Positions 7,096 to 22,670 of a DNA stretch of 64,000 nt are shown here, one piece after another. A program made the position numbers and the translations under genes. This DNA is from Marinobacterium zhoushanense (GTDB lineage: Bacteria > Pseudomonadota > Gammaproteobacteria > Pseudomonadales > Balneatricaceae): contig NZ_BMIJ01000005.1 of NCBI RefSeq assembly GCF_014641945.1, positions 222,718-286,717 of the forward strand, given 5' to 3'. Within the stretch, counting starts at the first letter, position 1. Every line of letters begins with the position of its first letter. The notes below the pieces were generated by a model. The model saw nothing but the letters and a program-made list of their open reading frames with translations, did no database searches and was not told the origin of the DNA.

Positions 7096-8468
7096 TGCTG
7101 CGCTATCTGCGCCAGAGCCTGCCGGGACGGGTCATCGGCCTGCTGATCCTGATCCTGGGCATCGTCAACGCCACCACCGTGTATGTCTTTTTCGAGGAGC
7201 GCAGCCGGGCGGTGCGCCTCAGTCAGTTGGAGGATCTGATCTCGCGCAGCGCGGGGATGGACCGCCTGCTCGACGAAACACCGCCGGAGTTGCGTACCGA
7301 GGCGCTTGGGGCGGTCACCAGCGAGCGGTTCCGGTTCGATATCGGTGCAACCGCCACCGCCGACCCCTACAACCGCACCGGTGCCGAGCACCCGCTCTAT
7401 CAGCGTCTGGTAGCGCTGTCCGGTAACGATGCCGCGCATGTGCAGCTGTCGATCAGCCCACGCTACTACTGGTGCTACAGCTGGGTGCAGAATCTGCTCA
7501 AGCCCAACCTGCTGTTCGATCCGGGCGATGCCGCACTGCCGATCGCCAGCCTGTCGATTCAGCGTCCGGACGGCCAGTGGCTGAACGCGACGTTGCGCTC
7601 GCCTAGCAGCCTGCCGACCTGGATCGTGCCATTGCTGGTGGCGTTGGGGCTGTTTGCATTGACCGTTTGTGTCGTGGTGGTGATCGTGCGTCAGGTGTCG
7701 GCGCCACTGGGTTGTCTCAGCCGGGCTGCCGACCGTATCGGCCGCGGTGAGCTGAGCGAGGCAATTCCGGAGCAGGGCTCCGAGGATGTGGTGCGTACCA
7801 CCCGCGCCTTCAACCGCATGCAGGACCGGCTCGAACGCTTTGTTACCGACCGCACGCGGATGATGGCGGCGATCTCCCACGACCTGCGCACACCGTTGAC
7901 CATGCTGCGGTTGCACGCCGAGTTCATTCAGCCCGAGAAAAGCCGCGACAAGATTCTGTGCATTCTCAACCAGATGCAGGAGATGCTTGAGGCGACGCTG
8001 GCCTTTACCCGCGAGGAATCGGTGCAGGAGGAGCGGCGTGCCGTGGATCTGGCAGCGCTGATCGGCAGTATCTGTGAAGACCTGCGTGATCTGGGTCATC
8101 CGATCGACTATGACGAGTCCCAGCGCGTGCCCTACCTGTGCCGCTCCGGCTCCATCCGCCGCGCGCTGACCAACCTGATCGAGAACGCGTGCAAATATGG
8201 CCAGCAGGCGGAGGTCGAGCTCAGCGTCCGCGACGATCGGTTGCTGATCGCGGTGCGCGACCGTGGACCTGGCATCCCGGAGGCGGACCAGCTGCGGGTG
8301 TTCGATCCCTTTGTGCGCCTCGAGACCTCACGCAGCCGGGAGACCGGCGGTATCGGCCTGGGCCTCTCCATCGCCCGCACCATCGCCCACTCCCACGGCG
8401 GAGAGATCCGCCTGGCCAACCGCCCCGAGGGCGGCCTGGAGGTGGTACTGGAGCTGCCCACCCACTGA
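7095..8468 (+). CDS. EnvZ-like sensor histidine kinase
   Basis: ATG overlaps the regulator stop (TGATG); two TM segments, HAMP domain, H-box (AISHDLRTPLT) and N, G1, G2 boxes. Confidence 0.8.
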   Translation: MLRYLRQSLPGRVIGLLILILGIVNATTVYVFFEERSRAVRLSQLEDLISRSAGMDRLLDETPPELRTEALGAVTSERFRFDIGATATADPYNRTGAEHPLYQRLVALSGNDAAHVQLSISPRYYWCYSWVQNLLKPNLLFDPGDAALPIASLSIQRPDGQWLNATLRSPSSLPTWIVPLLVALGLFALTVCVVVVIVRQVSAPLGCLSRAADRIGRGELSEAIPEQGSEDVVRTTRAFNRMQDRLERFVTDRTRMMAAISHDLRTPLTMLRLHAEFIQPEKSRDKILCILNQMQEMLEATLAFTREESVQEERRAVDLAALIGSICEDLRDLGHPIDYDESQRVPYLCRSGSIRRALTNLIENACKYGQQAEVELSVRDDRLLIAVRDRGPGIPEADQLRVFDPFVRLETSRSRETGGIGLGLSIARTIAHSHGGEIRLANRPEGGLEVVLELPTH

Positions 8469-8511
8469 CCCTGCATTCAACGGGAACAGTGGATGGGACC
8501 TGCTGTAGCGC

Positions 8512-8958
8512 TCAGTAACTCTTGTAGGGCAGGAACTTGCCCGACATTACCATATTGACCCGGTCGCCCTTGGGATCGGGCTCGCGCTGGATATCCAGCG
8601 AGAAGTCGATGGCGCTCATGATGCCGTCACCGAACTCCTCGTGGATCAGCTCCTTGATCGAGCCGCCGTAGACGCTGACGATCTCGTACAGGCGGTAGAG
8701 CAGGGGGTCGGTGGGGATGCCGCCGGTGCCTTTGGAGGGTACGATCTGCAGCCAGGCCACCGCTTCGTCGGTGAGCTCGAACATCCGACCGACGATCTCC
8801 GCCTGCTCCTTGTTCAGGGTCATCTGGCCGAGACAGGCGGCGGTGGTCCACTCCTTGGAGAGGCCAACTTCCGTGGCCACATCCTTCCATTTGATCCCCT
8901 TGCTGACCTTGGCGGAGAGGATCATCTGAGTCACTTCATCGCGATTGCTGATCATCAT
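8512..8958 (-). CDS. cynS: Cyanase (cyanate hydratase)
   Basis: 148 aa aligning with E. coli CynS over the whole length, including the C-terminal catalytic region (…IHEEFGDGIMSAIDF…); RBS AAGAAGGA 6 nt upstream; lies 31 nt downstream of the kinase gene. Confidence 0.9.
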   Translation of the reverse strand: MMISNRDEVTQMILSAKVSKGIKWKDVATEVGLSKEWTTAACLGQMTLNKEQAEIVGRMFELTDEAVAWLQIVPSKGTGGIPTDPLLYRLYEIVSVYGGSIKELIHEEFGDGIMSAIDFSLDIQREPDPKGDRVNMVMSGKFLPYKSY

Positions 8959-8989
8959 GTAGTCCTTCTTGGTTCGTTTAGGGTTTGGT

Positions 8990-10720
8990 TCACATTAGCG
9001 GGTTGGCGAGCAGGTAGATCAGCGCGCAGGCCAGCAGGGCTGACACCCCCTGCCAGAACAACACCGGGTTGCGTTCGATCAGCGGCGGCCGGGTCTTGTT
9101 CAGGTACTCCCGGTTGGGATGGCGCAGATCGTAGATAAACTCCGATAGGTCGTCATAGCGCTTCTCCGGGCTTGGATGGGTCGCCCGTTTCAGTGCTTCG
9201 TCCACCCAGGCCGGTATCTCGCGCTCGTCATCCAGTATCGAGTCATACCTGAGTTTCTGCTGCGCCTTGGCGGTACGGCACTTGGCCACCTGGGTGCCAT
9301 AGGGGAAACGGCCGCTGAGCATCTGGTAACAGATCACGCCGAGCGAGAACTGGTCCGAGCGCTCGCTGCCGGGAAAGCCGAGAAAGTACTCCGGTGCCGT
9401 GAACAGTGCGGTACCGAGTACCTGTTCCTGGCGGCTGACCACTGTCGCTTCGGCGATGCCGGCGACCCGGGTGGCACCGAAATCGATGATCTTCACCGTG
9501 CCGTTGCGGTCGATCATGATGTTGTCCGGACGCAGGTCCTGATGCAGCATCTCCATGCGGTGGAAAGCGCGCAGACCGCGGGCGATCTGTTCGACGATCG
9601 ACCGCACGGTCTCGATATCGGGGCGCGGGTTGTCGATCAACCATTGGCGCAGGGTCTGGCCCTCAATGTACTCCATCGCCGTGTACAGGTAGTGGCGATT
9701 GCGGCCGGGCGACTCCGCCTTCAGCACGTGGGCGCTGTTGATGCGCCGCGCTATCCACTCCTCCAGCAGGAAACGCTCCAGGTAGTCCGGGTCGTCGGCC
9801 AGGTCGATGGCCGGGGTTTTCAGCGCCACCGGGTCGCCACTGGCCATATCCACAGCCAGGAACACATGGCTGCGGCTGGTGGCGTGCAGTTCGCGGACGA
9901 TCTCGTAACCATCGAACTGCATGCGCGGTTCCAGCATCGGCGGCAGCGGCAGCTGCTCGATCTGCAACTGCAGCTCGGCGTGTTCCGTCCCGGGCACCTG
10001 GTCGACACGGACGATCTGCAGGGTCAGGTTGTCACCGCTGCCCCGTTCCAGCGCGTGCTTGGCGATCTGTCGGGCGGCGTTGTCGAGGGATGTCGGGTGC
10101 TCACGCAGGGTGTTGAGCAGAAACTGGGTGTCGCTGTGTTCGTAGATGCCGTCGGTGGCGAGGATAAAGGTATCCCCGGGCTTGACCGACAGGGCCTGGT
10201 AGTCGATCTCGAGCTGATCGTCGATACCGAGCGCCCGGCTCAGGTAGCTCTCCTGCTGGGAGACCCAGAGCCGATGATCCTTGGTCAGCTGTTCCAGCGC
10301 ATGCTCGTGTACACGGTAGATGCGCGAGTCGCCGACATGAAAAATGTGCGCGGTGGCGGCTTTGATCACCATTGCGCTGAGAGTACAGACGTAGCCTTTA
10401 TCCTTATCGTAACGGTAGTCGCTGCGCCGGGTCTGGGAGTGCAGCCAGGAGTTGGTGGCCGCTATCACCCGCTCGGCGGCAGTGCGCACGGTCCAGGCTT
10501 CCGAGGTACAGAAGTAATCGTCGAGAAAGGATTTGACCGCGGCGGCGCTGGCGATCTGGCTGACGCTGCTCGAGCTGATGCCATCCGCTATCGCCAGGGC
10601 TGCGCCCTTGAGACTCAGTTGCGGCTCTTTTGGGATCAGCGCACCGTGAAAATCCTGATTCAGCTCTTTTCGGCCCTTGTCCGAATACTGGCCAACGCTG
10701 AGCTTGAGGTGACTGGTCAT
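8990..10720 (-). CDS. PP2C-type phosphatase / Ser-Thr protein kinase fusion with C-terminal TM anchor
   Basis: N-terminal PP2C motifs (ADGISS, ATDG, SGDN); kinase VALK, HQDLRPDN and DFG motifs; C-terminal hydrophobic helix; co-directional between the FNT gene and cynS. Confidence 0.8.
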   Translation of the reverse strand: MTSHLKLSVGQYSDKGRKELNQDFHGALIPKEPQLSLKGAALAIADGISSSSVSQIASAAAVKSFLDDYFCTSEAWTVRTAAERVIAATNSWLHSQTRRSDYRYDKDKGYVCTLSAMVIKAATAHIFHVGDSRIYRVHEHALEQLTKDHRLWVSQQESYLSRALGIDDQLEIDYQALSVKPGDTFILATDGIYEHSDTQFLLNTLREHPTSLDNAARQIAKHALERGSGDNLTLQIVRVDQVPGTEHAELQLQIEQLPLPPMLEPRMQFDGYEIVRELHATSRSHVFLAVDMASGDPVALKTPAIDLADDPDYLERFLLEEWIARRINSAHVLKAESPGRNRHYLYTAMEYIEGQTLRQWLIDNPRPDIETVRSIVEQIARGLRAFHRMEMLHQDLRPDNIMIDRNGTVKIIDFGATRVAGIAEATVVSRQEQVLGTALFTAPEYFLGFPGSERSDQFSLGVICYQMLSGRFPYGTQVAKCRTAKAQQKLRYDSILDDEREIPAWVDEALKRATHPSPEKRYDDLSEFIYDLRHPNREYLNKTRPPLIERNPVLFWQGVSALLACALIYLLANPLM

Positions 10721-10780
10721 ATACTCAGATGCCGAAAAAAGCCCCAGCCACCCGCAGGTGACCAGGGTTTGGAAGGAAGG

Positions 10781-11623
10781 TTATACGGTTGCCGGCTTGG
10801 ACGGAGCGGAGGTCGGAATCTCGCGCTTGGAACCGGTACGCACGTGAGTGGTGTACAGGGTCAGGCCGGTGAACGCCAGGCCGCCGACCAGGTTGCCCAG
10901 AGCGGTCGGGATCTCGTTCCAGATGAAGTAGTCGGCGATGGAGAAGTTACCGCCCATGATCATGCTGAACGGGAACAGGAACATGTTGACCACGGAGTGC
11001 TCGAAGCCCATGAAGAAGAACAGCATGATCGGCATCCACATGGCGATCACCTTGCCGCTGACATGGGTGGAGATCATCGCACCGACTACGCCGAGGGAGA
11101 CCATCCAGTTACACAGCATGCCGCGGATGAAGATGGTGAACCAACCCTCTACGCCATAAGCAGCGTAACCAACCGTACGGGATTCGCCGATCTTGGCGAC
11201 TTTCTCGGCGATGGCGCCGCCGTCGGTGTTGTAACCCATGGTGAAGATGAACGACATCATCACCGCCACGGTGAAGGCTCCGGCGAAGTTACCGACGAAT
11301 ACCAGCCCCCAGTTGCGCAGAATCTGACCCGGGGTGACACCGGGGCGCTTGTCGAGCCAGGCCAGCGGGGTGAGCATAAACACACCGGTCAGCAGGTCGA
11401 AGCCCATCAGGTAAAGCATGCAGAAACCGACCGGGAACAGGATCGCGCCGATCAGGAACACGCCGGTTTGTACTGCGACAGTGACGGCAAACACTGCTGC
11501 CAGAGCCAGGATGGCACCGGCCATATAGCCACGGATCAGGGTGTCGCGGGTGGACATGTAGATCTTGGATTCACCGGCATCCACCATCTTGGTTACAAAT
11601 TCTGCGGGAATTAAGTAAGCCAT
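10781..11623 (-). CDS. Formate/nitrite transporter (FNT) family channel, NirC/FocA-like
   Basis: 280 aa, 6 TM segments, FNT signature regions; RBS GAGG upstream. Confidence 0.85.
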   Translation of the reverse strand: MAYLIPAEFVTKMVDAGESKIYMSTRDTLIRGYMAGAILALAAVFAVTVAVQTGVFLIGAILFPVGFCMLYLMGFDLLTGVFMLTPLAWLDKRPGVTPGQILRNWGLVFVGNFAGAFTVAVMMSFIFTMGYNTDGGAIAEKVAKIGESRTVGYAAYGVEGWFTIFIRGMLCNWMVSLGVVGAMISTHVSGKVIAMWMPIMLFFFMGFEHSVVNMFLFPFSMIMGGNFSIADYFIWNEIPTALGNLVGGLAFTGLTLYTTHVRTGSKREIPTSAPSKPATV

Positions 11624-11691
11624 ATTTTTGCCTCGTTCGACGTTAAGGGATCACACACAAAGGGTTCTAACCGACTGAGAGCAACAAAAAA

Positions 11692-11741
11692 ATGGCGTCC
11701 ACACATGCCCCGCCTTTTGCAGGTGCAGTGATGGACGCCAT
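11692..11741 (-). terminator. Leader hairpin with T-tract (candidate attenuator/terminator) upstream of the FNT operon
   Basis: Perfect 10-bp inverted repeat ATGGCGTCCA…TGGACGCCAT with a ~30-nt loop; on the minus strand it is followed by TTTTTTT. It lies ~60 nt upstream of the FNT start codon and ~230 nt downstream of the preceding gene. Confidence 0.45.
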
Positions 11742-11969
11742 TATCCAAAATTCTCAGCTTGTCAGATTTGAGCCAGCTTCAGCTCAAATACTGAATCGGA
11801 TATAGCAGTCAGCGTGCCAAAACCTGTTTTTTGTGAAAATCCCAAATAAAGTCAAAGTGTTACATTATCATTCTGGTTTTGTTGTCAGTCTGTGCCTAGA
11901 TCAAAAATGGTGCGCAGCCGGTCAGGGCTGCGCAGTTAAGGTTCATTTTATATGGTTATTAAGCGGGCG

Positions 11970-14537
11970 TTACGGCTGGGGCAGGGCGGTTTTGAGGTCA
12001 ACGCCAGGGCCGTGCGCCAGGCGGATAGGTGCTGACATCAATCGCCGCTGCAGCGCAGCCGCCAGCAACCCCAGCGCGATGCCACCGCCGATCGCCAGGC
12101 CGTCGATCAGCGGCGAGTGCCCCTCCAGCCCCAGCATCGGCATCAGCACCTCGGGTACCAGGCGGTGCAACAGATAGATCGCGAAGGCCGCCTGCGCCAG
12201 CCGCATCAGCGGTCGCAGGCTCCAGTCGGGCAGCGGAATGCTCGGTACCAGACAGAGCAGCGCGAGTATGCCGAGCAGGCTCATGTACTTGATCCAGCCG
12301 CCATACCAGTTGCCGCCCAGATATGCGGCCAGCGGCATGATTGCGCAGCCGAGGACGATCACCAGCCAACGCTGGCGGCGCGTCTGCGCCGCACTAATGC
12401 ACCAGCCGAGGGCGAACAGGTAGAGTACCCAGGGCACGGTGAACAGCGCCCGTCCGTTCATCGGCCAGAGCTGCGGAATAGTGATCCGCAGTAGTAGTGC
12501 CAGTGCCAGCAGTCCGAGGCCGAAGGTGAAGGGGGACAGCTTGGCCAGTTGTCGGCGCAGCGGCGGTATCAGGAAGGGCAGGACCACCAGCAGCGTGATC
12601 TGCACATAGGCTTCCACGAACCAGTACAGGAACGGCAGCATCTCATGGGTCGAGGGCTTGGTCAGCGCGAAGTTTCCCATCAGTAGCGCCGATACCCAGG
12701 GGACCTCGCCCCAGGCCAGGCTATAGCCTGCCAGCACGATGTAATAGGGAATGAGTACACCGAGCAGCGGGGCAAAATAGGTCCCCCAGTTGCCGGCGCA
12801 GAGCGCCTTCCAGCGGAACGATGAGACGCTCATCCCCATCAGCATCACCATCGCCGCCGCGCCGCCATATACCGGCCAGTGGGTCTGGTGTGTGACGACC
12901 ACCGCCAGGATTGCCAGTACTCGCGTCACCAGATCGGTAGGCAAGCGGTTGCGCTGACCGGGGCGGGCGTTCTCCAGTTCGGCGATCGGCATCCGTTCCC
13001 AGCCCGTCGGTACGCCGCCGAGCCGTTCCTCCAGGGCCAGAGTCAGCTCCACATGGCACAGGGAGTCTCCGCCGAGGCTGGAAAAGCTGTCGTCGGGACG
13101 CACGGCACGCGGTGCAAAGCTGGCGCGAAAGGCGGTCAGTACACCGCCGCTGGCTGTTTTCTGTCCCTGTTGTGCGCGCAGTGCCGGATAATCGATCTTG
13201 CCGTTGGCGCGCCGGGGCAGTGCGCGGAGCGGATGAACACGCACATGTTGGGCGCCGATTCCGGCCAGTTGCGCTGCCTTAGCTTGGACCTCCTCCGCTG
13301 CCGGGGCCGCACCCGCCATGCCGATATGGATCTGCCGGTCGTCCCCCCAGACCGCGACCTCCGGGGCGAAGTGGGCCAGGGCGCGCTCCAACGCGTCATG
13401 ACCGATGCGCAGGCCCGCGATCTTGGACATGCGCGACAGGCGGCCGGTGATACGGTAGATCCCGGCGCGATCGCGCCGGGCCAGGTCGCCGGTAGCCAGT
13501 TCATCGAGTTCAGCGCCATGGGCCAACTCCCGGTATCCCTCGGCATAGCCCATCATCACATTGGGCCCGCGGTAGATCAGTTCGCCCTCTGCTTCCGCGG
13601 TTTTAATCTCGGTTCCCTGTGCGTCACGCAGAGCCAGCGCGCCACCGGGGATGGCGATGCCGATCGCGTCGGGCTTATCCAATGCCATTTCCGGGGGCAG
13701 CCAGGCGATACGCGCGGTGGCCTCGGTCTGACCATACATGACCACGAAGCGCCCCTCATGACGCGCCATCAGCTTGGCCCAGTGCACCACCTTGGCCGGC
13801 TCCATGGCACCGCCGGCCACGGTCATGAAACGCAGGCTGGCAGGCAGATGATCGGCCAGGCCTGCGCTTTCCAGCAGGGTGAAGTGGTGTGGTACGCCCG
13901 CCAGATTGGTGACGCCACTGCGCGCCAGGGCCTGGTTGAATCCGGCGCTGAGCACCGACTCCCCGTGCAGCCAGAGCGATGCGCCCTGGAGCAGATGAGA
14001 GTGCAGCACCGACAGGCCATAGGAGTAGTGCAGCGGCAGTATCAGCGCGGCGCGGTCATCCGCCTGGATATCGAGGTACTCGGCGATAGATCCGGCATTG
14101 GCCTCCAGCGCCTGACGCGAGAGTCGTACGCCACGCCCCTGGCCGGTACTGCCGGAGGTCTGCAGCAGTAGCGCCAGCTCAGGGTGAGGCTCGGCGGCTT
14201 GCCAGTCGTGCCGCTCCGGCTCCCAGCGACCGTTGCGACGGTAGAAGCTCAGGGCTGGACGAAAGCGTTGGCTGAGCGAGCGCATCGTATCCGGGGTATC
14301 GACCGGCACCGGCATCACGGCATGGCCTGCGGCCAGGGTGCCGACATAGGCGGCAATTGCCTGAGGGTCGGAGGCCGCCTCGATCGCGATCAACTGCGGG
14401 GTATCGTATTGGTCGAGGGAAGCCGCAAAGCGGGCAGCTTGTTCGGCCAGCTCGGCATAGCTGAGCAGGATACCGCTGGCATCCAGTAAACAGGGTTGAG
14501 CCCCGAGAGCTCGGAAACGATCCAGGTCGAACAGCAT
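11970..14537 (-). CDS. Tri-domain protein: AMP-dependent adenylation domain + carrier-protein (phosphopantetheine) domain + C-terminal integral-membrane acyltransferase (Acyltransferase_3/OafA-like)
   Basis: Adenylation motifs (TSGSTG, YGQTE, GELIYRGPNVMMGY, RITGRLSRMSKIAG, NGKIDY), a carrier-protein serine motif (LGGDSL), then ~330 aa with ~10 TM helices opening with an AT3-like R-x-D-x-x-R…H signature. Confidence 0.7.
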   Translation of the reverse strand: MLFDLDRFRALGAQPCLLDASGILLSYAELAEQAARFAASLDQYDTPQLIAIEAASDPQAIAAYVGTLAAGHAVMPVPVDTPDTMRSLSQRFRPALSFYRRNGRWEPERHDWQAAEPHPELALLLQTSGSTGQGRGVRLSRQALEANAGSIAEYLDIQADDRAALILPLHYSYGLSVLHSHLLQGASLWLHGESVLSAGFNQALARSGVTNLAGVPHHFTLLESAGLADHLPASLRFMTVAGGAMEPAKVVHWAKLMARHEGRFVVMYGQTEATARIAWLPPEMALDKPDAIGIAIPGGALALRDAQGTEIKTAEAEGELIYRGPNVMMGYAEGYRELAHGAELDELATGDLARRDRAGIYRITGRLSRMSKIAGLRIGHDALERALAHFAPEVAVWGDDRQIHIGMAGAAPAAEEVQAKAAQLAGIGAQHVRVHPLRALPRRANGKIDYPALRAQQGQKTASGGVLTAFRASFAPRAVRPDDSFSSLGGDSLCHVELTLALEERLGGVPTGWERMPIAELENARPGQRNRLPTDLVTRVLAILAVVVTHQTHWPVYGGAAAMVMLMGMSVSSFRWKALCAGNWGTYFAPLLGVLIPYYIVLAGYSLAWGEVPWVSALLMGNFALTKPSTHEMLPFLYWFVEAYVQITLLVVLPFLIPPLRRQLAKLSPFTFGLGLLALALLLRITIPQLWPMNGRALFTVPWVLYLFALGWCISAAQTRRQRWLVIVLGCAIMPLAAYLGGNWYGGWIKYMSLLGILALLCLVPSIPLPDWSLRPLMRLAQAAFAIYLLHRLVPEVLMPMLGLEGHSPLIDGLAIGGGIALGLLAAALQRRLMSAPIRLAHGPGVDLKTALPQP

Positions 14538-14711
14538 GGTGGATGTACTACAAAAAATGGGTGATTAGAGGTAGATGACAATATTAAGACAAATGAGAAT
14601 TAATCGTGAATAGAAATTTTCAACTTACCCACCGTGCAAGTTGAAAACACTTGGTGTGCACCAAGATGGCGCGCGGTCCTTGTCGATGGCCGGAAATGAA
14701 GCGCAGCTCGA

Positions 14712-16028
14712 CTAGTGCGGCAAGCCGTTGCTCTTGCCCTTCAGCTGCTCGATGTCGGCGATCAGCTTCTGCGCGACCGCTGCCAGCGAGCGGTTTTGCG
14801 CCATTGAGGTTTGCTGCAGCAGCCGGTAGGCCTGCTCTTCGGTCAGCCCGCGGAACTGCATCAGCAGCCCCTTGGCACGTTCCAGCGTCTTGCGATCCGA
14901 CAGCGCCTGTCGGGCGGCCGTGAGTTCGTCGTGCATCTGTTTCAGCCCCTCAGCCTGTTGCCTGACCAGGCCGTAGAGCGAGTGCACCCAGTCGCTGCTG
15001 GTGGCGCCCGAGCTGCCAGCTTCCGTCGGCGCCGGGGCCTGTTCCGGCGCGAGCAGCATGGTCAGCGGCGAGGCACCGGGCTCATGCAGGGAGGCGATCA
15101 GCTCCAGGCTGTCGTGATGTTTTTTCAGCTCCTTGTTCGCCTCGCGCACGCGCTGCTGACTCAATTGCAGCAGGGCATCGGCCAGTTGCCGCTCCAGTTG
15201 TTGCATCCTGTCGATCCGCCGGGTGGCCGCGTCATACCAGACCTCGCTGATCTCGGACGGCAGTCCGGTACCGGGTTGGACACGGGCGATCAGCAGACGC
15301 AAGCGTAGAAACTCCAAGGTCTCTTCGTGGTTTTCCAGTTCACGCCAACCGTCTATTGGAGCGGCTTGCGCAAACTCCTCGAAGGTGTGGAAGCTTTGCT
15401 GCTGGCTGTCGACCAGGTCAGACAACCGGTGCAGCAGCGCTTGATCGAACTCACCCGCGGCGAAGCCGATCACCGCCCAGGCCCGCTCCTGTCCTGCGTA
15501 CTCCTTGCCCTGCATGAAATTGAACATGGCCACCAGCGCGCGGGTGATCTCGGGATCGTCGGAGATGTCGGCGGCTTCGAAGATCACCGACAGCAGGGCG
15601 GTTATCAGGCGATTGAAGGCTTGGGTACTCTCGGTGGCAGTCAGCGCCCGTTGGCCGATCTGCTCACGCAGGGCTTGAAGGCCGTCCAATCCATGCAGCG
15701 CATAGGCGATATTGTTGAACAGGCGTGCACTGCCGACCCGGGTCCAGCTTTCGATATCCAGTTGCTCAAGTCGGCACCTGAAGCCTTGTTCGGCGTGCAG
15801 AGCCGTTGGGATCTGCTGCAGGCGCTGGCGAGCGAAACGCACGCCTTTAGAGGCAAGAAACACGTTGGATAACCCGCGCTCGCGCTGCAGCTCATGGATC
15901 AGGTTGCTGACCTGGGTCACCAGTTCGCAACTGGCCATCAACTGGCGCAGCAGGGCGATCTCCGAGCGCTTGGAGGCGAGGAAGAAGGTTTCGGTTGCCA
16001 GGGCGTTGCCGGTCATCGACTGATCCAT
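14712..16028 (-). CDS. NasR-like nitrate/nitrite-sensing antitermination regulator (NIT domain + C-terminal ANTAR domain)
   Basis: 438 aa; C-terminal ANTAR-like helix region (…LERAKGLLMQFRGLTEEQAYRLLQQTSMAQNRSLAAVAQKLI); N-terminal region matches the NIT sensor domain of NasR. Confidence 0.75.
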   Translation of the reverse strand: MDQSMTGNALATETFFLASKRSEIALLRQLMASCELVTQVSNLIHELQRERGLSNVFLASKGVRFARQRLQQIPTALHAEQGFRCRLEQLDIESWTRVGSARLFNNIAYALHGLDGLQALREQIGQRALTATESTQAFNRLITALLSVIFEAADISDDPEITRALVAMFNFMQGKEYAGQERAWAVIGFAAGEFDQALLHRLSDLVDSQQQSFHTFEEFAQAAPIDGWRELENHEETLEFLRLRLLIARVQPGTGLPSEISEVWYDAATRRIDRMQQLERQLADALLQLSQQRVREANKELKKHHDSLELIASLHEPGASPLTMLLAPEQAPAPTEAGSSGATSSDWVHSLYGLVRQQAEGLKQMHDELTAARQALSDRKTLERAKGLLMQFRGLTEEQAYRLLQQTSMAQNRSLAAVAQKLIADIEQLKGKSNGLPH

Positions 16029-16145
16029 ATAGAGTCACAAGTCCGTTGAGTGCAGCAAATCCTATACCAGTGTTGGTATGGCGCTGGCGAGGCTGCGGCG
16101 GTGGATGTTACTGTGTGGCCCCACCGAGCCTACGGAGAGAGTGCG

Positions 16146-16391
16146 ATGAAAGAGTTTATGTACGCCTTGGCCTTGTGTTTGTTGATGGCGTCGGGTTGGA
16201 GCATCTCCAAAGCACCGAGTGAGCGCGCGATAAAAGCCGCGCCCGATGCGGCCACCGCCGCTCAACTCGAGCAGGAGCGCGGACAGATCCGCGCCATCGC
16301 CGGCGGTGCCCTGGTCTTGGCACTGGTGTGTGGGGTGGTGGGCTGGCGCTCCAAAAGCCGTGAGGATGCAGATAGGAAAAAGCTCGATTGA
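16146..16391 (+). CDS. Small hypothetical protein with signal peptide and C-terminal TM helix
   Basis: ATG at 16146 within ORF 16050..16391; hydrophobic N- and C-terminal segments; no homology recognised. Confidence 0.3.
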   Translation: MKEFMYALALCLLMASGWSISKAPSERAIKAAPDAATAAQLEQERGQIRAIAGGALVLALVCGVVGWRSKSREDADRKKLD

Positions 16392-16461
16392 TCAAATCGG
16401 GCCGCGCTACCTGCAGTAATAGGTACAGGCTTTCTGGCCCGCTTGGTAAAGCATCTGCTCC

Positions 16462-16475
16462 TTGATAAACATCAT
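16462..16475. promoter_or_regulatory. Candidate FNR box upstream of ubiU (TTGAT-N4-ATCAT)
   Basis: One mismatch to TTGAT-N4-ATCAA; ~60 nt upstream of the ubiU start. Confidence 0.4.
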
Positions 16476-16534
16476 GTCGCTGTACTTCCCGAACCGCTAG
16501 GCTGGGCGCACTCGTTTTCGCTCAGGAGGTTGCA

Positions 16535-17527
16535 GTGGAACTGGTGTGTCCCGCCGGGAGTTTTCCCGCCCTGAAGGCGGCCGTGGATAACGGTGCCGAC
16601 GCCGTCTACTTCGGCTTTCGCGATAAAACCAACGCGCGTCAGTTTGCCGGTCTCAACTTCGACCGCCGCAAAGCGGAGAAGGGGATCGACTACGCCCGCA
16701 GCCGAGGCGTCAAGGTGCTCTGTGCTATCAACACCTATCCCCAGCCCGAGGGCTGGTCCAGCTGGCAGGCGGCAGTGGATATGGCCGCCGACCTGGGTGT
16801 CGATGCGCTGATCGCTGCCGATATGGGAGTATTGGGCTATGCCGCCGAACGCCATTCCGCGCTGCGTCTGCACTTGTCGGTACAGGGGTCGGCCACCAAT
16901 TACGAGGCGCTGAACTACTACCGTGACCAGTTCGGCATCCAGCGTGCTGTGCTGCCCCGGGTGCTGTCACTGGCGCAGGTGGAACATCTGGCCGCGCACA
17001 CCCCGGTGGAGCTGGAGGTATTCGCCTTCGGCAGCCTTTGTATCATGGTCGAGGGGCGCTGTTATCTATCCTCCTACCTGACCGACGAATCCCCCAACAC
17101 CTGCGGCGCCTGCTCGCCGGCCAAGGCCGTGCGCTGGCAGGAGACCGCGCGCGGGCTGGAGTCACGCCTGAACGAGGTGCTGATTGACCGCTATGCCGAT
17201 GGCGAAAAGGCCGGTTATCCCACCCTGTGCAAGGGGCGTTTCGAGGTGGAGGGCAACGTCTACCACGCCATGGAAGAACCGACCAGCCTCAACACTCTGG
17301 ACCTGATCCCGGAGCTGAAACGGATCGGTATCCAGGCGGTCAAGATCGAGGGTCGGCAGCGCAGCCCCGCCTACGTGTCCCAGGTCACCCGGATCTGGCG
17401 CGAGGCGCTCGACAACGCCGCAACGCAGGGTGCCTTCAAGGTACAACCGCAGTGGGACCGCGGGCTGGAGGCGCTGTCCGAGGGCAGCACCACCACTATC
17501 GGTGCCTATCATCGCAGCTGGCAGTAG
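16535..17527 (+). CDS. ubiU: UbiU, U32-peptidase-family O2-independent ubiquinone hydroxylase subunit
   Basis: 330 aa; near-collinear match to E. coli UbiU/YhbU including the conserved Cys residues (FGSLCIMVEGRCYLSSY…PNTCGACSP…TLCKGR). Confidence 0.85.
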   Translation: MELVCPAGSFPALKAAVDNGADAVYFGFRDKTNARQFAGLNFDRRKAEKGIDYARSRGVKVLCAINTYPQPEGWSSWQAAVDMAADLGVDALIAADMGVLGYAAERHSALRLHLSVQGSATNYEALNYYRDQFGIQRAVLPRVLSLAQVEHLAAHTPVELEVFAFGSLCIMVEGRCYLSSYLTDESPNTCGACSPAKAVRWQETARGLESRLNEVLIDRYADGEKAGYPTLCKGRFEVEGNVYHAMEEPTSLNTLDLIPELKRIGIQAVKIEGRQRSPAYVSQVTRIWREALDNAATQGAFKVQPQWDRGLEALSEGSTTTIGAYHRSWQ

Positions 17528-17535
17528 GGGGATAG

Positions 17536-18432
17536 ATGGACAAGGCATTGAAACTGACCCTGGGGCCGCTGCTCTACTTCTGGCCCAAGCAGGATGTGTA
17601 TAACTTCTACGCCGAGATGGCGGAGCAACCGCTGGATACCGTCTACCTGGGCGAGACGGTTTGTTCCAAGCGGCGTCAGCTCAAGCTCGACGACTGGATC
17701 GAGATCGGCCGTGACCTGCGCGCCTGCGGCAAGCAGGTGGTGCTCTCCAGCCTGGCGCTGCTGGAGGCAGAGTCGGAACTGAAGATGCTGCGCCGCATCT
17801 GCGCCAACGGCGAATTCCAGGTCGAGGCCAACGATATGGCCGCGGTGCAGTTGCTGAGCAGCCAAGGGGTGGAGTTCGTCACCGGCCCGTCGATCAATAT
17901 CTACAACCTGGGTACGCTCAAGCGACTCTACAACAGCGGCATGCGCCGCTGGGTGATGCCGGTGGAGCTGTCGGCGCAGACGCTGGAGCAGCTGCTGCAG
18001 CAGGTCGCGCAGGATGGCTCTCTGCCCGAGTTGGAGACCGAGGTGTTCGCTTACGGCTGCCTGCCGCTGGCCTATGCCGCCCGCTGCTTCACCGCCCGCT
18101 ACCGCAACCTGCCCAAGGACAACTGCAACTTCTGTTGTATCGAGTACCCGGACGGCATCCCGGTGCGCTCGCAGGAGGGGCGCGAGTTGTTCACGATGAA
18201 CGGCATTCAGACCCTGTCCGGGGAGCACTACAATCTGGAGCACGAGCTGGATGCCATGCAGGTCATGGGCGTGGACAGGGTGCGGTTGAGCCCGCAGCGG
18301 CAGCGGATGGCAGCTGTAATCAAGCGTTTCAGTCAGCGCCTGAAGGGTGAACAGAAAGATACCATCCCACTGCTCAGCGCCGGTCAATGCAACGGCTACT
18401 GGTACGGGTTACCGGGCATGGACAGGGTGTAG
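17536..18432 (+). CDS. ubiV: UbiV, U32-peptidase-family partner of UbiU
   Basis: 298 aa U32 protein directly downstream of ubiU; conserved Cys cluster (CSKRRQ…[13 protein letters not shown]…CNFCC). Confidence 0.85.
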
Positions 18433-19933: not shown

Positions 19934-21682
19934 TTGGCGGATAGCGAGGCGGCAATGGATAGATACGCGAACGTGGAGGTGAGAAGCACAGTCGACGAGT
20001 ACCTGGAGCGCAGCGACTGGCGGGTCAACGCCAACGCCAACCAGGGCTATTCGCTGGGCGGGCTGATCCTGAATGTGTCTGGTAAGGTGATCGCCAACTA
20101 CTGGCTGAACGAGGTCTACACCCCGTTGATCGGCATGGCGCATCGCGAAGGGGACCTGCATATCCACGATCTGGACATGCTATCCGGATACTGCGCCGGC
20201 TGGTCGCTGCGCACCCTGCTGTTCGAGGGACTCAACGGCATTCCGGGGCGGCTGGAGAGCGGTGCGCCCAAGCATCTATCCAGCGCCGTGGGGCAGATCG
20301 TCAACTTCCTCGGCACGCTGCAGAATGAGTGGGCCGGAGCCCAGGCCTTCAGCTCCTTCGATACCTACCTGGCGCCGTTCATCCGCAAGGACAACCTGGC
20401 CTACGAGCAGGTACTGCAGTGCATGCAGGAGCTGATCTACAACCTCAACGTACCCTCGCGTTGGGGCACCCAGACCCCGTTTACCAACCTGACCTTCGAC
20501 TGGCACTGCCCGGACGATCTGAAGCAGCAGATACCGGTCATTGCCGGCGAGGAGATGCCGTTCAGCTACGGCGAACTGCAGGCCGAGATGGACATGATCA
20601 ACCGCGCCTATCTGGAGGTGATGGACGCGGGTGATGCCAAGGGGCGGGTGTTCACCTTCCCGATCCCGACCTACAACATCACCAAGGATTTTGACTGGGA
20701 CAGCGCCAACGCCGAGCTGCTGTTTCGGCTCACGGCCAAGTACGGACTGCCCTATTTCCAGAACTTCATCTGCTCCGACCTGGAGCCGAACATGGTGCGC
20801 TCCATGTGTTGCCGCCTGCAGTTGGACCTGCGCGAGTTGCTCAAACGCGGCAACGGCCTGTTTGGCTCCGCCGAACAGACCGGCTCCATAGGCGTGGTTA
20901 CGATCAACTGCGCGCGGCTGGGCTACCTTTACAACGGCGACTGGCAGGGGCTTTACGAGCACCTGGACCACCTGCTGATACTGGCCAAGGAGTCACTGGA
21001 ACTGAAACGGCGCCGTATCCAGCAGTTGATGGACGAGGGGTTGTTCCCCTACACCAAGCGCTACCTGGGCACCCTGCGCAATCACTTCTCCACCATCGGC
21101 GTGAACGGCATCAACGAGATGCTGCGCAACTTCAGCGATGACCACATCGATATCTCGTGTGACGAGGGGCAGGCGCAAGCGTTGAGGCTGCTGAACCATA
21201 TCAACGAACGCCTGACCCAGTTCCAGGAGCAGACCGGCCACCTGTACAACCTGGAGGCGACACCGGCGGAGGGCACCACCTACCGTTTCGCCCGCGAGGA
21301 TCGCAAGCGCTGGCCCGATATCCTCCAGGCCGGCACCCGCGAGCACCCCTACTACACCAACTCCAGCCAACTGCCGGTGGGGTATACCGACGATCCCTTC
21401 CTGGCGCTGGAGAAGCAGGATGCGCTGCAGACCCGCTATACCGGCGGCACTGTGCTGCACCTGTACATGCGTGAGCGGATCTCCAGCGTGCGCGCCTGCA
21501 AGCAGATGGTGAAGCAGGCATTGAGCAACTTCGCGCTGCCCTATATCACCATCACCCCGACCTTCTCCATCTGTCCACACCACGGCTACCTGGCCGGGGA
21601 GCATGAATACTGTCCGCGCTGCGACGAAGAGCGACTGCAGCAGAAACTCACACAGAATCAACAAGCACCCGCCTGCACCTGA
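19934..21682 (+). CDS. nrdD: Anaerobic ribonucleoside-triphosphate reductase NrdD, catalytic body lacking the C-terminal glycyl-radical domain
   Basis: Class III RNR core sequence; C-terminal metal-site residues (CPHH…CPRC); ORF stops before any RxxGY glycyl-radical motif; probable start ATG 19955. Confidence 0.85.
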   Translation: MADSEAAMDRYANVEVRSTVDEYLERSDWRVNANANQGYSLGGLILNVSGKVIANYWLNEVYTPLIGMAHREGDLHIHDLDMLSGYCAGWSLRTLLFEGLNGIPGRLESGAPKHLSSAVGQIVNFLGTLQNEWAGAQAFSSFDTYLAPFIRKDNLAYEQVLQCMQELIYNLNVPSRWGTQTPFTNLTFDWHCPDDLKQQIPVIAGEEMPFSYGELQAEMDMINRAYLEVMDAGDAKGRVFTFPIPTYNITKDFDWDSANAELLFRLTAKYGLPYFQNFICSDLEPNMVRSMCCRLQLDLRELLKRGNGLFGSAEQTGSIGVVTINCARLGYLYNGDWQGLYEHLDHLLILAKESLELKRRRIQQLMDEGLFPYTKRYLGTLRNHFSTIGVNGINEMLRNFSDDHIDISCDEGQAQALRLLNHINERLTQFQEQTGHLYNLEATPAEGTTYRFAREDRKRWPDILQAGTREHPYYTNSSQLPVGYTDDPFLALEKQDALQTRYTGGTVLHLYMRERISSVRACKQMVKQALSNFALPYITITPTFSICPHHGYLAGEHEYCPRCDEERLQQKLTQNQQAPACT

Positions 21683-21723
21683 CGGGGCGGCACTAAAACC
21701 AAAGCAAAACCAGGTTAAAGCAA

Positions 21724-21787
21724 GGCCAAACCACACTAGGGCCAAACGAAACTAAGGCCAAACCAAATTAAGGCCAAACCAAATTAA
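21724..21787. repeat. 4 x 16-nt tandem direct repeat (GGCCAAACCAAATTAA-like) in the nrdD / mini-ORF spacer
   Basis: Units at 21724-39, 21740-55, 21756-71, 21772-87; the last two identical; A-rich against a GC-rich background; ends at the SD GGAGAG. Confidence 0.8.
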
Positions 21788-21798
21788 GGAGAGTCATC

Positions 21799-21948
21799 AT
21801 GAACGCAGCCAAACTACTGAAACCGGAAGAGCGTCAGCGTTGCGAAGTCTGGACCCGGGTGATGGGTTACCACCGGCCGGTATCCCAGTTCAACGCCGGC
21901 AAACGCTCGGAACACCGGGAGCGTCGCCACTTCGTCGAGAAAGGCTGA
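21799..21948 (+). CDS. Stand-alone 49-aa glycyl-radical domain of class III RNR (NrdD C-terminal module encoded separately)
   Basis: MNAAKLLKPEERQRCEVWTRVMGYHRPVSQFNAGKRSEHRERRHFVEKG carries the NrdD glycyl-radical signature R-V-x-G-Y…FNxGK…R..HF. Own SD (AAGGAGAG, 7 nt spacing); stop overlaps the nrdG start (ATGA). Not in the supplied ORF track because it is under 60 aa. Confidence 0.7.
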   Translation: MNAAKLLKPEERQRCEVWTRVMGYHRPVSQFNAGKRSEHRERRHFVEKG

Positions 21949-22670
21949 TGGCAATGCGGCTGCGCACACCGAAGGAGCTGCGGGTCAGCGGCATGACACC
22001 GCTGACCACAATTGACTTCCCGGACCACCTGGCCTGCGTACTCTATACCCAGGGCTGTCCGCTGCGCTGCCGCTACTGTCACAACCCCCAGCTGATCCCC
22101 TTTGGCGATCAGCTGGCGTCCCTATCCTGGCTGGAAATTGAAGAGTTCCTGCACAGGCGACAGGGTCTGCTCGAAGCCGTCGTGTTCAGCGGTGGAGAGC
22201 CAACCCTGCAGCCCGCCCTGGCCGCGGCGATGGCCGTGGTCAGGGAGCTGGGTTTCAAGGTCGGGCTGCACACTGCCGGGGTCAGCCCCGAGCGCTTGGC
22301 GCAGCTGCTGCCGCTGGCCGACTGGGTCGGCCTCGATGTCAAAGCCCCATTCCACCGTTATCCACAGGTCACCGGTCGCAACCACCAGGCGCAGCAGAAC
22401 CGCAACAGCCTGGCACTGTTGCTGGCGTCGGATGTCCGCTTCGAATGCCGCACCACCGTGGACTGGCGCCTGTTTACGCCGGACGAACTGCACGACCTGG
22501 CCCGCCAGTTGGCCGAGCTTGGCGTACAACGTTACGCGGTGCAGATCAACCAGGCCCGCAACTGCCTCGATCCCGAGCTGGAGCAGACGGTCACTCTATC
22601 GACCGAACAGCTGAGGGTTCTGAAACAGAAGTTGGCTGCGCTGTTCCCGGTATTTGATTGGCGGGAGTAG
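21948..22670 (+). CDS. nrdG: Anaerobic RNR activating enzyme NrdG (radical SAM)
   Basis: CPLRCRYCHNP radical-SAM motif; ~240 aa from ATG 21948. Confidence 0.85.
   Translation: MAMRLRTPKELRVSGMTPLTTIDFPDHLACVLYTQGCPLRCRYCHNPQLIPFGDQLASLSWLEIEEFLHRRQGLLEAVVFSGGEPTLQPALAAAMAVVRELGFKVGLHTAGVSPERLAQLLPLADWVGLDVKAPFHRYPQVTGRNHQAQQNRNSLALLLASDVRFECRTTVDWRLFTPDELHDLARQLAELGVQRYAVQINQARNCLDPELEQTVTLSTEQLRVLKQKLAALFPVFDWRE

Follow-up and report, generated by a model that had tools for sequence, protein, structure and literature searches.

Acyl groups are carried across membranes mainly by AT3/TmAT proteins, to which HGSNAT belongs in humans, and in the current model of these enzymes soluble acyl-CoA threads the pore. 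All characterised AT3 acetyltransferases that have been studied share an R/K-X10-H motif in the first transmembrane helix (TMH1), and both the Arg and the His are essential in OafA (PMC7448272). In simulations, acetyl-CoA occupies the AT3 pore, with the N-terminus and TMH9-10 framing the cytoplasmic entrance; the thioester lies at the His of TMH1, and the 3'-phosphate of CoA is held by the Arg of TMH1 together with an Arg of the RXXR motif. OafA, Oac and OafB cannot do without this second motif, which is located where TMH3 meets the cytoplasm and has been modelled as the binder of the CoA 3'-phosphate. As for fused domains, AT3 reviews give only SGNH, racemase and NRF fusions. Here we describe a gene of Marinobacterium zhoushanense, located in a 64,000-nucleotide stretch of contig NZ_BMIJ01000005.1 (hereafter the window), which joins an ANL-superfamily adenylation (A) domain, a peptidyl carrier protein (PCP) domain and an AT3 domain in one chain. 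No description of this architecture was found in the literature when the domain combination, AT3 reviews and the DmdR1/IdeR regulons were searched. Our reading, which we hold with slightly more confidence than doubt, is that the protein would act as a single-chain, Dlt-like acyl relay, in which a tethered phosphopantetheine replaces acyl-CoA as the AT3 donor, and that this relay serves iron acquisition.

Domains and catalytic residues of the fusion protein

The gene is an ATG-initiated open reading frame (ORF) of 855 codons on the minus strand, as seen from the ORF list and its translation. The preliminary description, made from the letters of the window, had placed the same 855-amino-acid (aa) gene at 11970-14537 and omitted the strand. 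The identical protein at NCBI (P0001, 100% identity) bears the name 'AMP-dependent synthetase [Marinobacterium zhoushanense]' and no other. All motifs quoted in that description were located at checked codons: TSGSTG (residues 127-132, nt 14142-14159), YGQTE (268-272, nt 13722-13736), GELIYRGPN (318-326), NGKIDY (445-450, including Lys447) and LGGDSL (488-493, with the codon of Ser492 at nt 13062-13064). Its three-domain architecture and domain boundaries were likewise supported by Pfam, by the structure model and by invariant residues (Table 1).

First, the A domain matches AMP-binding of Pfam with 138.4 bits, above the cut-off of 29.9 (E 3.6e-40), and its top NCBIfam matches are TIGR03098 (9e-47) and AA-adenyl-dom (1.2e-38). 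The core motifs of ANL enzymes, namely A3 (TSGSTG), A5 (YGQTE), A7 (TGD, 349-351), A8 (GR..R.SK, 365-372, with G365-R366 and K372) and A10 (Lys447), are invariant or almost so in 80 cross-phylum sequences. These 80 are the best species hits of at least 595, obtained from a scan of one genome per species, and were examined as loci, not as whole genomes. Comparison with PDB sequences matched the A domain to VinN and PltF, and Foldseek to HitB, PltF and IdnL1. The model of the full-length structure has a mean predicted local distance difference test score (pLDDT) of 90.6, mainly above 90 over the A domain.

The other two domains of the window protein score below their Pfam cut-offs: PP-binding reaches 19.7 bits against 20.8, and Acyl_transf_3, spanning positions 7-321 of the 326 in the profile, reaches 25.4 bits against 31. 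In relatives both lie above, with 61.2 bits for AT3 and 39.8 for PP-binding in P0278, and 40.6 and 35.8, respectively, in P0140. The four-helix carrier fold and the ten-transmembrane-helix TmAT fold are both present. Ser492 is invariant in 118 of 118 close and in 80 of 80 cross-phylum homologues. TMH1 carries Arg539 (nt 12921-12923) and His550 (nt 12888-12890) in an exact R-X10-H arrangement, and both residues are invariant in the same two sets. Since relatives exceed the cut-offs, and Ser492, Arg539 and His550 are invariant, we regard the reality of the carrier and AT3 domains as settled at the level of sequence. Further conserved residues of the AT3 domain are W639-F-x-E642 and IYLxH791, and the YLxH motif of the latter (H791) aligns with YLxH of E. 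coli OpgC. The assignment to AT3 rather than MBOAT was thus borne out; the AT3 fold and the exact R-X10-H also speak against a generic transporter, and the residues of the carrier and adenylation domains are intact.

The substrate pocket of the A domain consists of Ser172, Tyr173, Ser176, Thr239, Ala241, Met267, Ala275 and Arg276. In amino acid-activating enzymes the substrate amino group is held by an Asp (Asp235 in GrsA, Asp230 in VinN), and the alignment puts Ser172 at this position and at that of the corresponding Asp of PltF. The column is Cys in 50, Ser in 29 and Ala in 1 of the 80 cross-phylum homologues, and Asp in none of them. The preliminary description had left the choice between an acyl and an aminoacyl substrate; because the Asp235-equivalent is never Asp, an amino acid is unlikely, and the specificity-code analysis favours the acyl alternative. 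Arg276 aligns with Arg331 of VinN, which contacts the alpha-carboxylate of 3-methylaspartate, and is invariant in the 80 homologues; Tyr171, Tyr173, Ser176, Thr239, Ala241, Met267 and Ala275 are essentially invariant from Proteobacteria to Actinomycetota. Going by residue numbers, the oxalate-contacting His319 of the oxalyl-CoA synthetase AtAAE3, three residues past the TE of the motif, would neighbour the position of Arg276. From these residues we infer a single small, polar and probably anionic (e.g., dicarboxylic) acid common to the whole family. It is likely a common metabolite, because biosynthetic genes do not accompany the fusion gene.

The AT3 domain differs from its relatives at the site assigned to CoA. 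RXXR was placed at residues 589-597 through the OpgC context 'RVERVGIP'; this mapping rests on local motif context, because the alignment of an AT3-subfamily profile with E. coli OpgC was confined to the C-terminal YLxH region (E 0.16). The window protein lacks the RXXR arginines, having Ala589, Pro590 and Gly593; about 60% of the family sequences have Arg or Lys at 589, and about 55% have Arg at 593. In the secondary structure of the model, the PCP precedes TMH1 and is joined through a linker of 26 residues to the N-terminus of this helix, at the pore entrance. Because the RXXR arginines are relaxed in the family and lost in the window protein, the donor is probably not acyl-CoA but the carrier-tethered phosphopantetheine arm, which is without the 3'-phospho-ADP moiety.

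Distribution of the family and its link to iron

At least 595 species, drawn from Alphaproteobacteria, Gammaproteobacteria and Actinomycetota, encode the fusion. The best 80 include Marinobacterium and Oceanospirillaceae, many Alphaproteobacteria (Leisingera, Paracoccus, Rhizobium, Ensifer, Mesorhizobium, Devosia, Dongia and Kiloniella) and 46 Actinomycetota (Streptomyces, Micromonospora, Rhodococcus, Nocardia, Arthrobacter, Frankia and others). Source names of homologues are generic, such as 'AMP-binding protein' and 'long-chain-fatty-acid--CoA ligase'. A search with the C-terminal half of the protein yielded mainly fragments. When the AT3 domain alone was compared with 1.84 billion representatives, 644 matched at E<=1e-3; among the best 150 of these, 79 are fusions of at least 750 aa with AT3 at the C-terminus, and the remainder are mainly fragments and T-AT3 proteins with few stand-alone AT3s. 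Because full fusions make up 79 of these 150 and most others are fragments or T-AT3 proteins, the sequences describe an AT3 clade essentially dedicated to the fusion. One locus (L005) has a split form, in which a 405-aa AMP-binding protein is followed after 23 bp by a PP-binding+AT3 protein and then by an Fe(III) substrate-binding protein (SBP). The metagenomic protein P0278 (1212 aa) has the order A domain, AT3, PP-binding and AT3; here the carrier and acyltransferase unit is duplicated on one adenylation domain.

Some copies are borne on plasmids, as in Leisingera and Paracoccus. In a Mesorhizobium locus (L091, 6559-7691), IS110 and Tn3 fragments lie immediately upstream of the fusion gene. 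The Marinobacterium and Leisingera proteins are 63-65% identical. On the Leisingera plasmids (L001/L002, 8365-9573), a class I/II aminotransferase gene is convergent with the fusion gene, and the two share 4 nt. The plasmid locations, the insertion sequence and Tn3 fragments alongside and the Leisingera arrangement point to a mobile gene that spreads horizontally as a single gene.

The preliminary description noted no obvious partner genes. This stands for the window; across the family, FbpABC-type Fe(III) importers and IdeR/RirA motifs recur. The proposed search for orthologous fusions and their conserved neighbours found both. When all ORFs of the 80 species loci were clustered, only three recurrent neighbour families appeared, namely an SBP (31 of 80 loci), a double-length permease (30 of 80) and an ATP-binding cassette (ABC) ATPase. 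Three arrangements are seen: the importer divergent from the fusion gene, SBP-permease-ATPase followed by the fusion gene, and the fusion gene followed by SBP and permease. The adjacency is found mainly in Actinomycetota, and also in Rhizobium (L015, L022), on a Paracoccus plasmid (L092) and in the split system (L005). Five SBPs from adjoining importers, three of them within the 31 loci, were compared with the PDB. Their best matches are YfuA/SfuA (L055, E 4e-120), 7w3w/HitA (L087, E 9e-78), the Bordetella 1Y9U type (L092, E 1e-132; L022, E 8e-142) and the 7LI0/FutA type (L005, E 5e-82). By these matches all five are unmistakable ferric-binding proteins of differing subclasses, and such variety speaks more for a functional link than for the inheritance of a single block.

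Other genes were seen beside the fusion in one or two loci. On the Paracoccus plasmid (L092, 10650-12975 and 12961-14738), the Fe(III) importer is followed by a PlsC-type acyltransferase gene and by CdsA-like and unassigned genes. A pair consisting of an FAD_binding_3 monooxygenase and a DUF2783 protein lies near the fusion gene both in L092 and in Marinobacterium rhizophilum (L003, 6274-8194). Neither FAD_binding_3 with DUF2783 nor PlsC with CdsA was accepted as a partner, being present in one or two loci and not recurring in the other ~90.

A second line of evidence comes from operators. The loci were scanned for the IdeR/DmdR iron box TTAGGTTAGGCTAACCTAA with at least 14 of 19 matches. Boxes were found between -300 and +30 of the gene start in 28 of 46 actinobacterial loci, including importer-free ones (Arthrobacter, Pseudarthrobacter), at a density of 2.56 per kb near the gene versus 0.015 per kb over the remaining 922 kb. 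Of the 14 hits elsewhere, 12 fall at the promoter of the neighbouring SBP operon, 8 of them in loci without a box at the fusion gene, and about 36 of the 46 loci have a box either at the gene or at the linked operon promoter. As a control, 100 composition-matched permuted palindromes matched 0.18 loci on average and never more than 6. In Rhizobiales, the RirA box TGA-N9-TCA is present at -39 to -86 in 13 of 19 loci (4.9 per kb versus 0.30 per kb). Validated RirA boxes overlap a -35-like TTGAC, as published, and the sites predicted here do likewise. Irr ICE boxes were not found upstream of the alphaproteobacterial copies. Because predicted sites for two unrelated iron repressors in two phyla coincide with importer adjacency, iron limitation is the best-supported physiological context of the family.

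A predicted acyl relay and its alternatives

How the three domains may cooperate can be outlined in four steps. The A domain, in the cytoplasm, would use ATP to activate a carboxylic acid, as suggested by its intact motifs; this acid is most likely not an amino acid, and the invariant Arg276 probably holds an anionic or polar group at its distal end. The in-cis carrier domain would then receive the acyl group as a thioester on the phosphopantetheine arm attached to Ser492. Judging from the fold, the topology and published AT3 models, the arm would next take the position of the acyl-CoA pantetheine inside the pore and bring the thioester to His550; the carrier directly precedes TMH1, on the side of the modelled acetyl-CoA entry into the AT3 pore. 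Finally, with the assistance of His550, the acyl group would be passed to an acceptor or to water at the outer face of the cytoplasmic membrane. Candidate acceptors must exist in diderm and monoderm bacteria alike, such as peptidoglycan, a common lipid, a secreted small molecule or water. Lipopolysaccharide (LPS), which the preliminary description had listed, cannot be the general acceptor, since the family spans Actinomycetota (46 of the 80 best species hits) as well as Proteobacteria. At the family level, the relay would operate within the iron-limitation response together with FbpABC-type Fe(III) ABC importers. The role we favour is that it displays on the cell surface, or releases there, a carboxylate that binds Fe(III), from which the ferric-binding protein would then collect iron.

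Where FbpA-type transporters find their 'free' Fe(III) is a standing question, especially in Gram-positive bacteria, and the family offers a concrete candidate: a single, predicted iron-repressed gene travelling with importers across at least two phyla and several subclasses of ferric-binding protein, in organisms including Streptomyces, Rhodococcus, rhizobia and, on plasmids, the marine Roseobacter group. A bolder proposal can be raised only tentatively, as a possibility that we rather doubt. It holds that siderophore-independent Fe(III) uptake of the FbpABC/SfuABC type has its missing partner in this family, which would be the first TmAT/AT3 supplied by covalently tethered acyl-phosphopantetheine in place of acyl-CoA, and that under iron limitation the enzyme carries a small chelating (di)carboxylate outward, either releasing it or esterifying it to the cell surface, for the ferric-binding protein to take Fe(III) from it. 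Candidates for such a carboxylate are oxalate, malonate, another oxo- or hydroxy-dicarboxylate and an aryl acid.

Several points weigh against a relay for iron acquisition. Upstream of the window gene, the best match to a Fur box in the 260 nt scanned is 10/19, a background level, and the three closest Marinobacterium/Oceanospirillaceae orthologues are also at background (best 10-11/19). A Fur-type site was not consistently found at other proteobacterial loci. The 64-kb window contains no Fe(III) importer and no Fbp genes, and the closest Marinobacterium orthologues, without a Fur box, lie in contexts unrelated to iron. The RirA enrichment is partly inflated, both by the overlap with the -35-like TTGAC and by the kinship of the Ensifer/Sinorhizobium loci. 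The substrate, the acceptor and the phosphopantetheinylation are all deduced from sequence, and the reach of the Ser492 arm into the AT3 pore is assumed from domain order. The scheme also leaves unexplained the cost of ATP and a carrier domain when acyl-CoA or an exporter might serve. An iron role would be transferred to the window copy via orthology alone, and our overall confidence is therefore moderate.

The strongest rival is the Dlt-like decoration of the envelope to which the preliminary description pointed, here taken as independent of iron. In this case the protein would esterify a surface glycan (peptidoglycan, exopolysaccharide or a teichoic-acid-like polymer) and thereby alter charge or resistance to lysozyme, phage or antimicrobial peptides. 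Nearly all characterised bacterial AT3 proteins acylate extracytoplasmic carbohydrates, the window copy has neither an iron-related neighbour nor an iron operator, and the Leisingera gene follows genes for a DegP-like protease and a two-component system, an envelope-stress-like context. However, the pocket is invariant over diderm Proteobacteria and monoderm or mycolate Actinomycetota, so that a shared acceptor would be required, which excludes LPS and most lineage-specific polymers. Furthermore, glycan-synthesis genes are not conserved nearby in the loci examined, and the IdeR/RirA boxes and the adjacency of Fe(III) importers would be left unaccounted for. Envelope decoration is unlikely as an explanation independent of iron; it could still hold if the decorated polymer serves iron capture.

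Re-acylation of lipids in the manner of Aas is improbable. Under this proposal a fatty acid would be activated, loaded on the carrier and moved to a lysophospholipid or another membrane lipid. The A domain does match the acyl-ACP synthetase part of Aas models (NF006386, 9e-28; NF005291, 2e-24) and several models of long-chain fatty-acid-CoA ligases, but all such matches are far under the curated cut-offs. Some homologues are named 'long-chain-fatty-acid--CoA ligase' or '2-acyl-glycerophospho-ethanolamine acyltransferase', and PlsC and CdsA genes lie 4 kb off on the Paracoccus plasmid, although these neighbours are present in one locus only. The polar/aromatic pocket with its invariant Arg276 would be unlike the hydrophobic tunnel expected for long chains. 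Moreover, the acyltransferase is AT3, not PlsC, and the catalytic His of AT3 is placed toward the outer face.

The least probable alternative, which we give very little weight, is natural-product tailoring or a stand-alone module resembling nonribosomal peptide synthetases (NRPS), acylating a secreted product in the way of the AT3 enzymes for macrolides and aureolic acids. Both the A domain and the PCP have NRPS character (LGGDSL; best PDB relatives VinN, PltF, HitB and IdnL1), antibiotics are acylated by the AT3 enzymes CmmA, MdmB and Asm19, and the family is common in Streptomyces and Micromonospora, but biosynthetic genes are not conserved around the gene in 80 loci, where Fe(III) ABC importer genes alone recur, the pocket is invariant across phyla, unlike that of pathway-specific tailoring enzymes, and the window gene is solitary with its own terminator.

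Local context and comparison with known systems

The features of the window are collected in Table 1. The hairpin past the stop codon was found by a terminator scan and in the sequence itself, and the A-PCP-AT3 gene looks monocistronic. Upstream, the Pho-box-like direct repeat (14564-14592, minus strand; TTGTCTT AATA TTGTCAT CTAC CTCTAAT) lies 38-55 nt 5' of the ATG. It scores 14/18, the highest value in the window, with a second, overlapping site at 13/18; three other Marinobacterium/Oceanospirillaceae genomes do not share it in front of their orthologues. A promoter scan found no sigma-70 consensus promoter, and Rfam gave zero matches at E<=1 over 8000-17000. The upstream regions of the four gammaproteobacterial copies show no convincing alignment; the other three have a common block, which the window is without.

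Table 1. Features of the window around the fusion gene (positions in the window; aa, amino acids).
Feature	Position	Strand	Basis or remark
Whole gene, adenylation-PCP-AT3 fusion, 855 aa	11970..14537	minus	stop codon 11970-11972; ORF list and translation
ANL adenylation domain, residues 1-456	13170..14537	minus	Pfam, NCBIfam, PDB sequence and Foldseek matches, cross-phylum invariance
Peptidyl-carrier-type domain, residues 464-507	13017..13148	minus	phosphopantetheine attachment site Ser492 in LGGDSL
Cytoplasmic linker, PCP to TMH1, residues 508-533	12939..13016	minus	model secondary structure and invariant columns; conserved W513-E514
AT3/TmAT membrane acyltransferase domain, residues 534-836	12030..12938	minus	~10 transmembrane helices
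Terminator-like hairpin	11911..11934	minus	9 pairs, 7 of them G-C, then T-run; 36 nt past stop; terminator scan and sequence
Upstream intergenic region, 174 bp	14538..14711	minus	AT-rich promoter-like stretch and Pho-box-like direct repeat; sequence
NIT+ANTAR (NasR-like) regulator	14712-16028	minus	
FNT transporter	10781-11623	minus	
PP2C and Ser/Thr kinase fusion	8990-10720	minus	
Cyanate lyase	8512-8958	minus	

The neighbours named in the preliminary description, the FNT transporter and the NasR-like regulator with its NIT and ANTAR domains, were both confirmed. On the minus strand the order is NIT+ANTAR regulator, fusion gene, terminator-like hairpin, a 346-bp leader, FNT, PP2C-kinase and cyanate lyase. 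The FNT leader (11625-11830, minus strand; core 11700-11760) folds far beyond shuffles (z -5.1) and has at its 3' end a perfect 10-bp stem, AUGGCGUCCA...UGGACGCCAU, followed by U7. This hairpin is likely an attenuator, and the leader is a plausible target of the NasR-like regulator. The fusion gene thus looks like a monocistronic insertion that separates a NasR-like antiterminator from its probable target leader. Two adjoining hairpins with T-rich tails lie immediately 3' of the NasR-like stop codon (14616-14665, minus strand) and are probably the terminator of that gene, set between it and the promoter region of A-PCP-AT3. The 576-aa protein next to FNT has a PP2C phosphatase domain (17-239) fused to a Ser/Thr protein kinase domain (281-522). 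On the plus strand, two adjacent peptidase-U32 genes are followed by NrdD (anaerobic ribonucleotide reductase) and a radical-SAM activase (16535-18432 and 19934-22670), an anaerobiosis-related block adjoining nitrogen-assimilation genes. Two long ORFs, both antisense to real genes in this GC-rich DNA, were rejected as shadow ORFs: one of 430 aa within the fusion gene (12879-14171, plus strand), and one of 812 aa, with no Pfam match (9176-11614, plus strand). Antisense ORFs inside the fusion gene recur among loci solely owing to the conservation of the fusion gene itself.

Among known systems, the analogy of the preliminary description to DltA, DltC and DltB is reasonable, given the three domains and the intact catalytic residues. 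Both systems combine ATP-dependent adenylation, a carrier thioester and a polytopic membrane acyltransferase which moves the acyl group outward. However, the membrane part of the fusion is AT3 whereas DltB is an MBOAT protein, there are no DltD or DltX partners, and the amino-binding Asp is absent. The fusion would therefore work like a Dlt relay by analogy, but it is not a member of the Dlt system.

Aas also places an ANL adenylating domain and a membrane-associated acyltransferase in one polypeptide and uses a carrier-protein thioester as intermediate. It differs in having an N-terminal PlsC-type acyltransferase, a free acyl carrier protein (ACP), fatty acids as substrates and the cytoplasmic leaflet as its site of action. 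The Aas model NF006386 gives the fusion 96.5 bits against a cut-off of 1221, over the A domain only, and Pfam found no PlsC domain in the protein. The closest solved relatives of the A domain, VinN, PltF, HitB and IdnL1, share with it the MYGQTE motif and the carboxylate-binding Arg (331 in VinN); they are stand-alone enzymes that load carrier proteins, activating amino acids by means of a conserved Asp and supplying polyketide/NRPS lines, whereas the fusion is without the Asp and the predicted acceptor of its carrier is a membrane acyltransferase. VanT is another AT3 protein with a fused cytoplasmic enzyme domain, but this extra domain is C-terminal and provides no activated acyl donor.

The AT3/TmAT proteins themselves (OafA, OafB, Oac, OatA and OpgC, and the solved HGSNAT and GWT1) share with the fusion the 10-helix fold, R-X10-H in TMH1 and YLxH near TMH9, and in both the N-terminus lies on the cytoplasmic side, where the pore opens. 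The acyl donor of known members is soluble acyl-CoA, whereas the fusion has its own activating enzyme and a predicted tethered donor. In addition, the RXXR arginines are dispensable in the fusion family, an SGNH domain is absent and the sequence is divergent (25 bits with Pfam). The sequence of the fusion has the defining features of ANL, PCP and AT3/TmAT proteins except for RXXR and the presumed acyl-CoA donor. What appears to be new is an AT3 protein with a built-in, carrier-tethered donor system, together with a previously unreported tie to iron regulons. If this is true, a carrier-bound pantetheine arm could substitute for acyl-CoA in the AT3 pore, and AT3 chemistry would extend to acids without a CoA pool.

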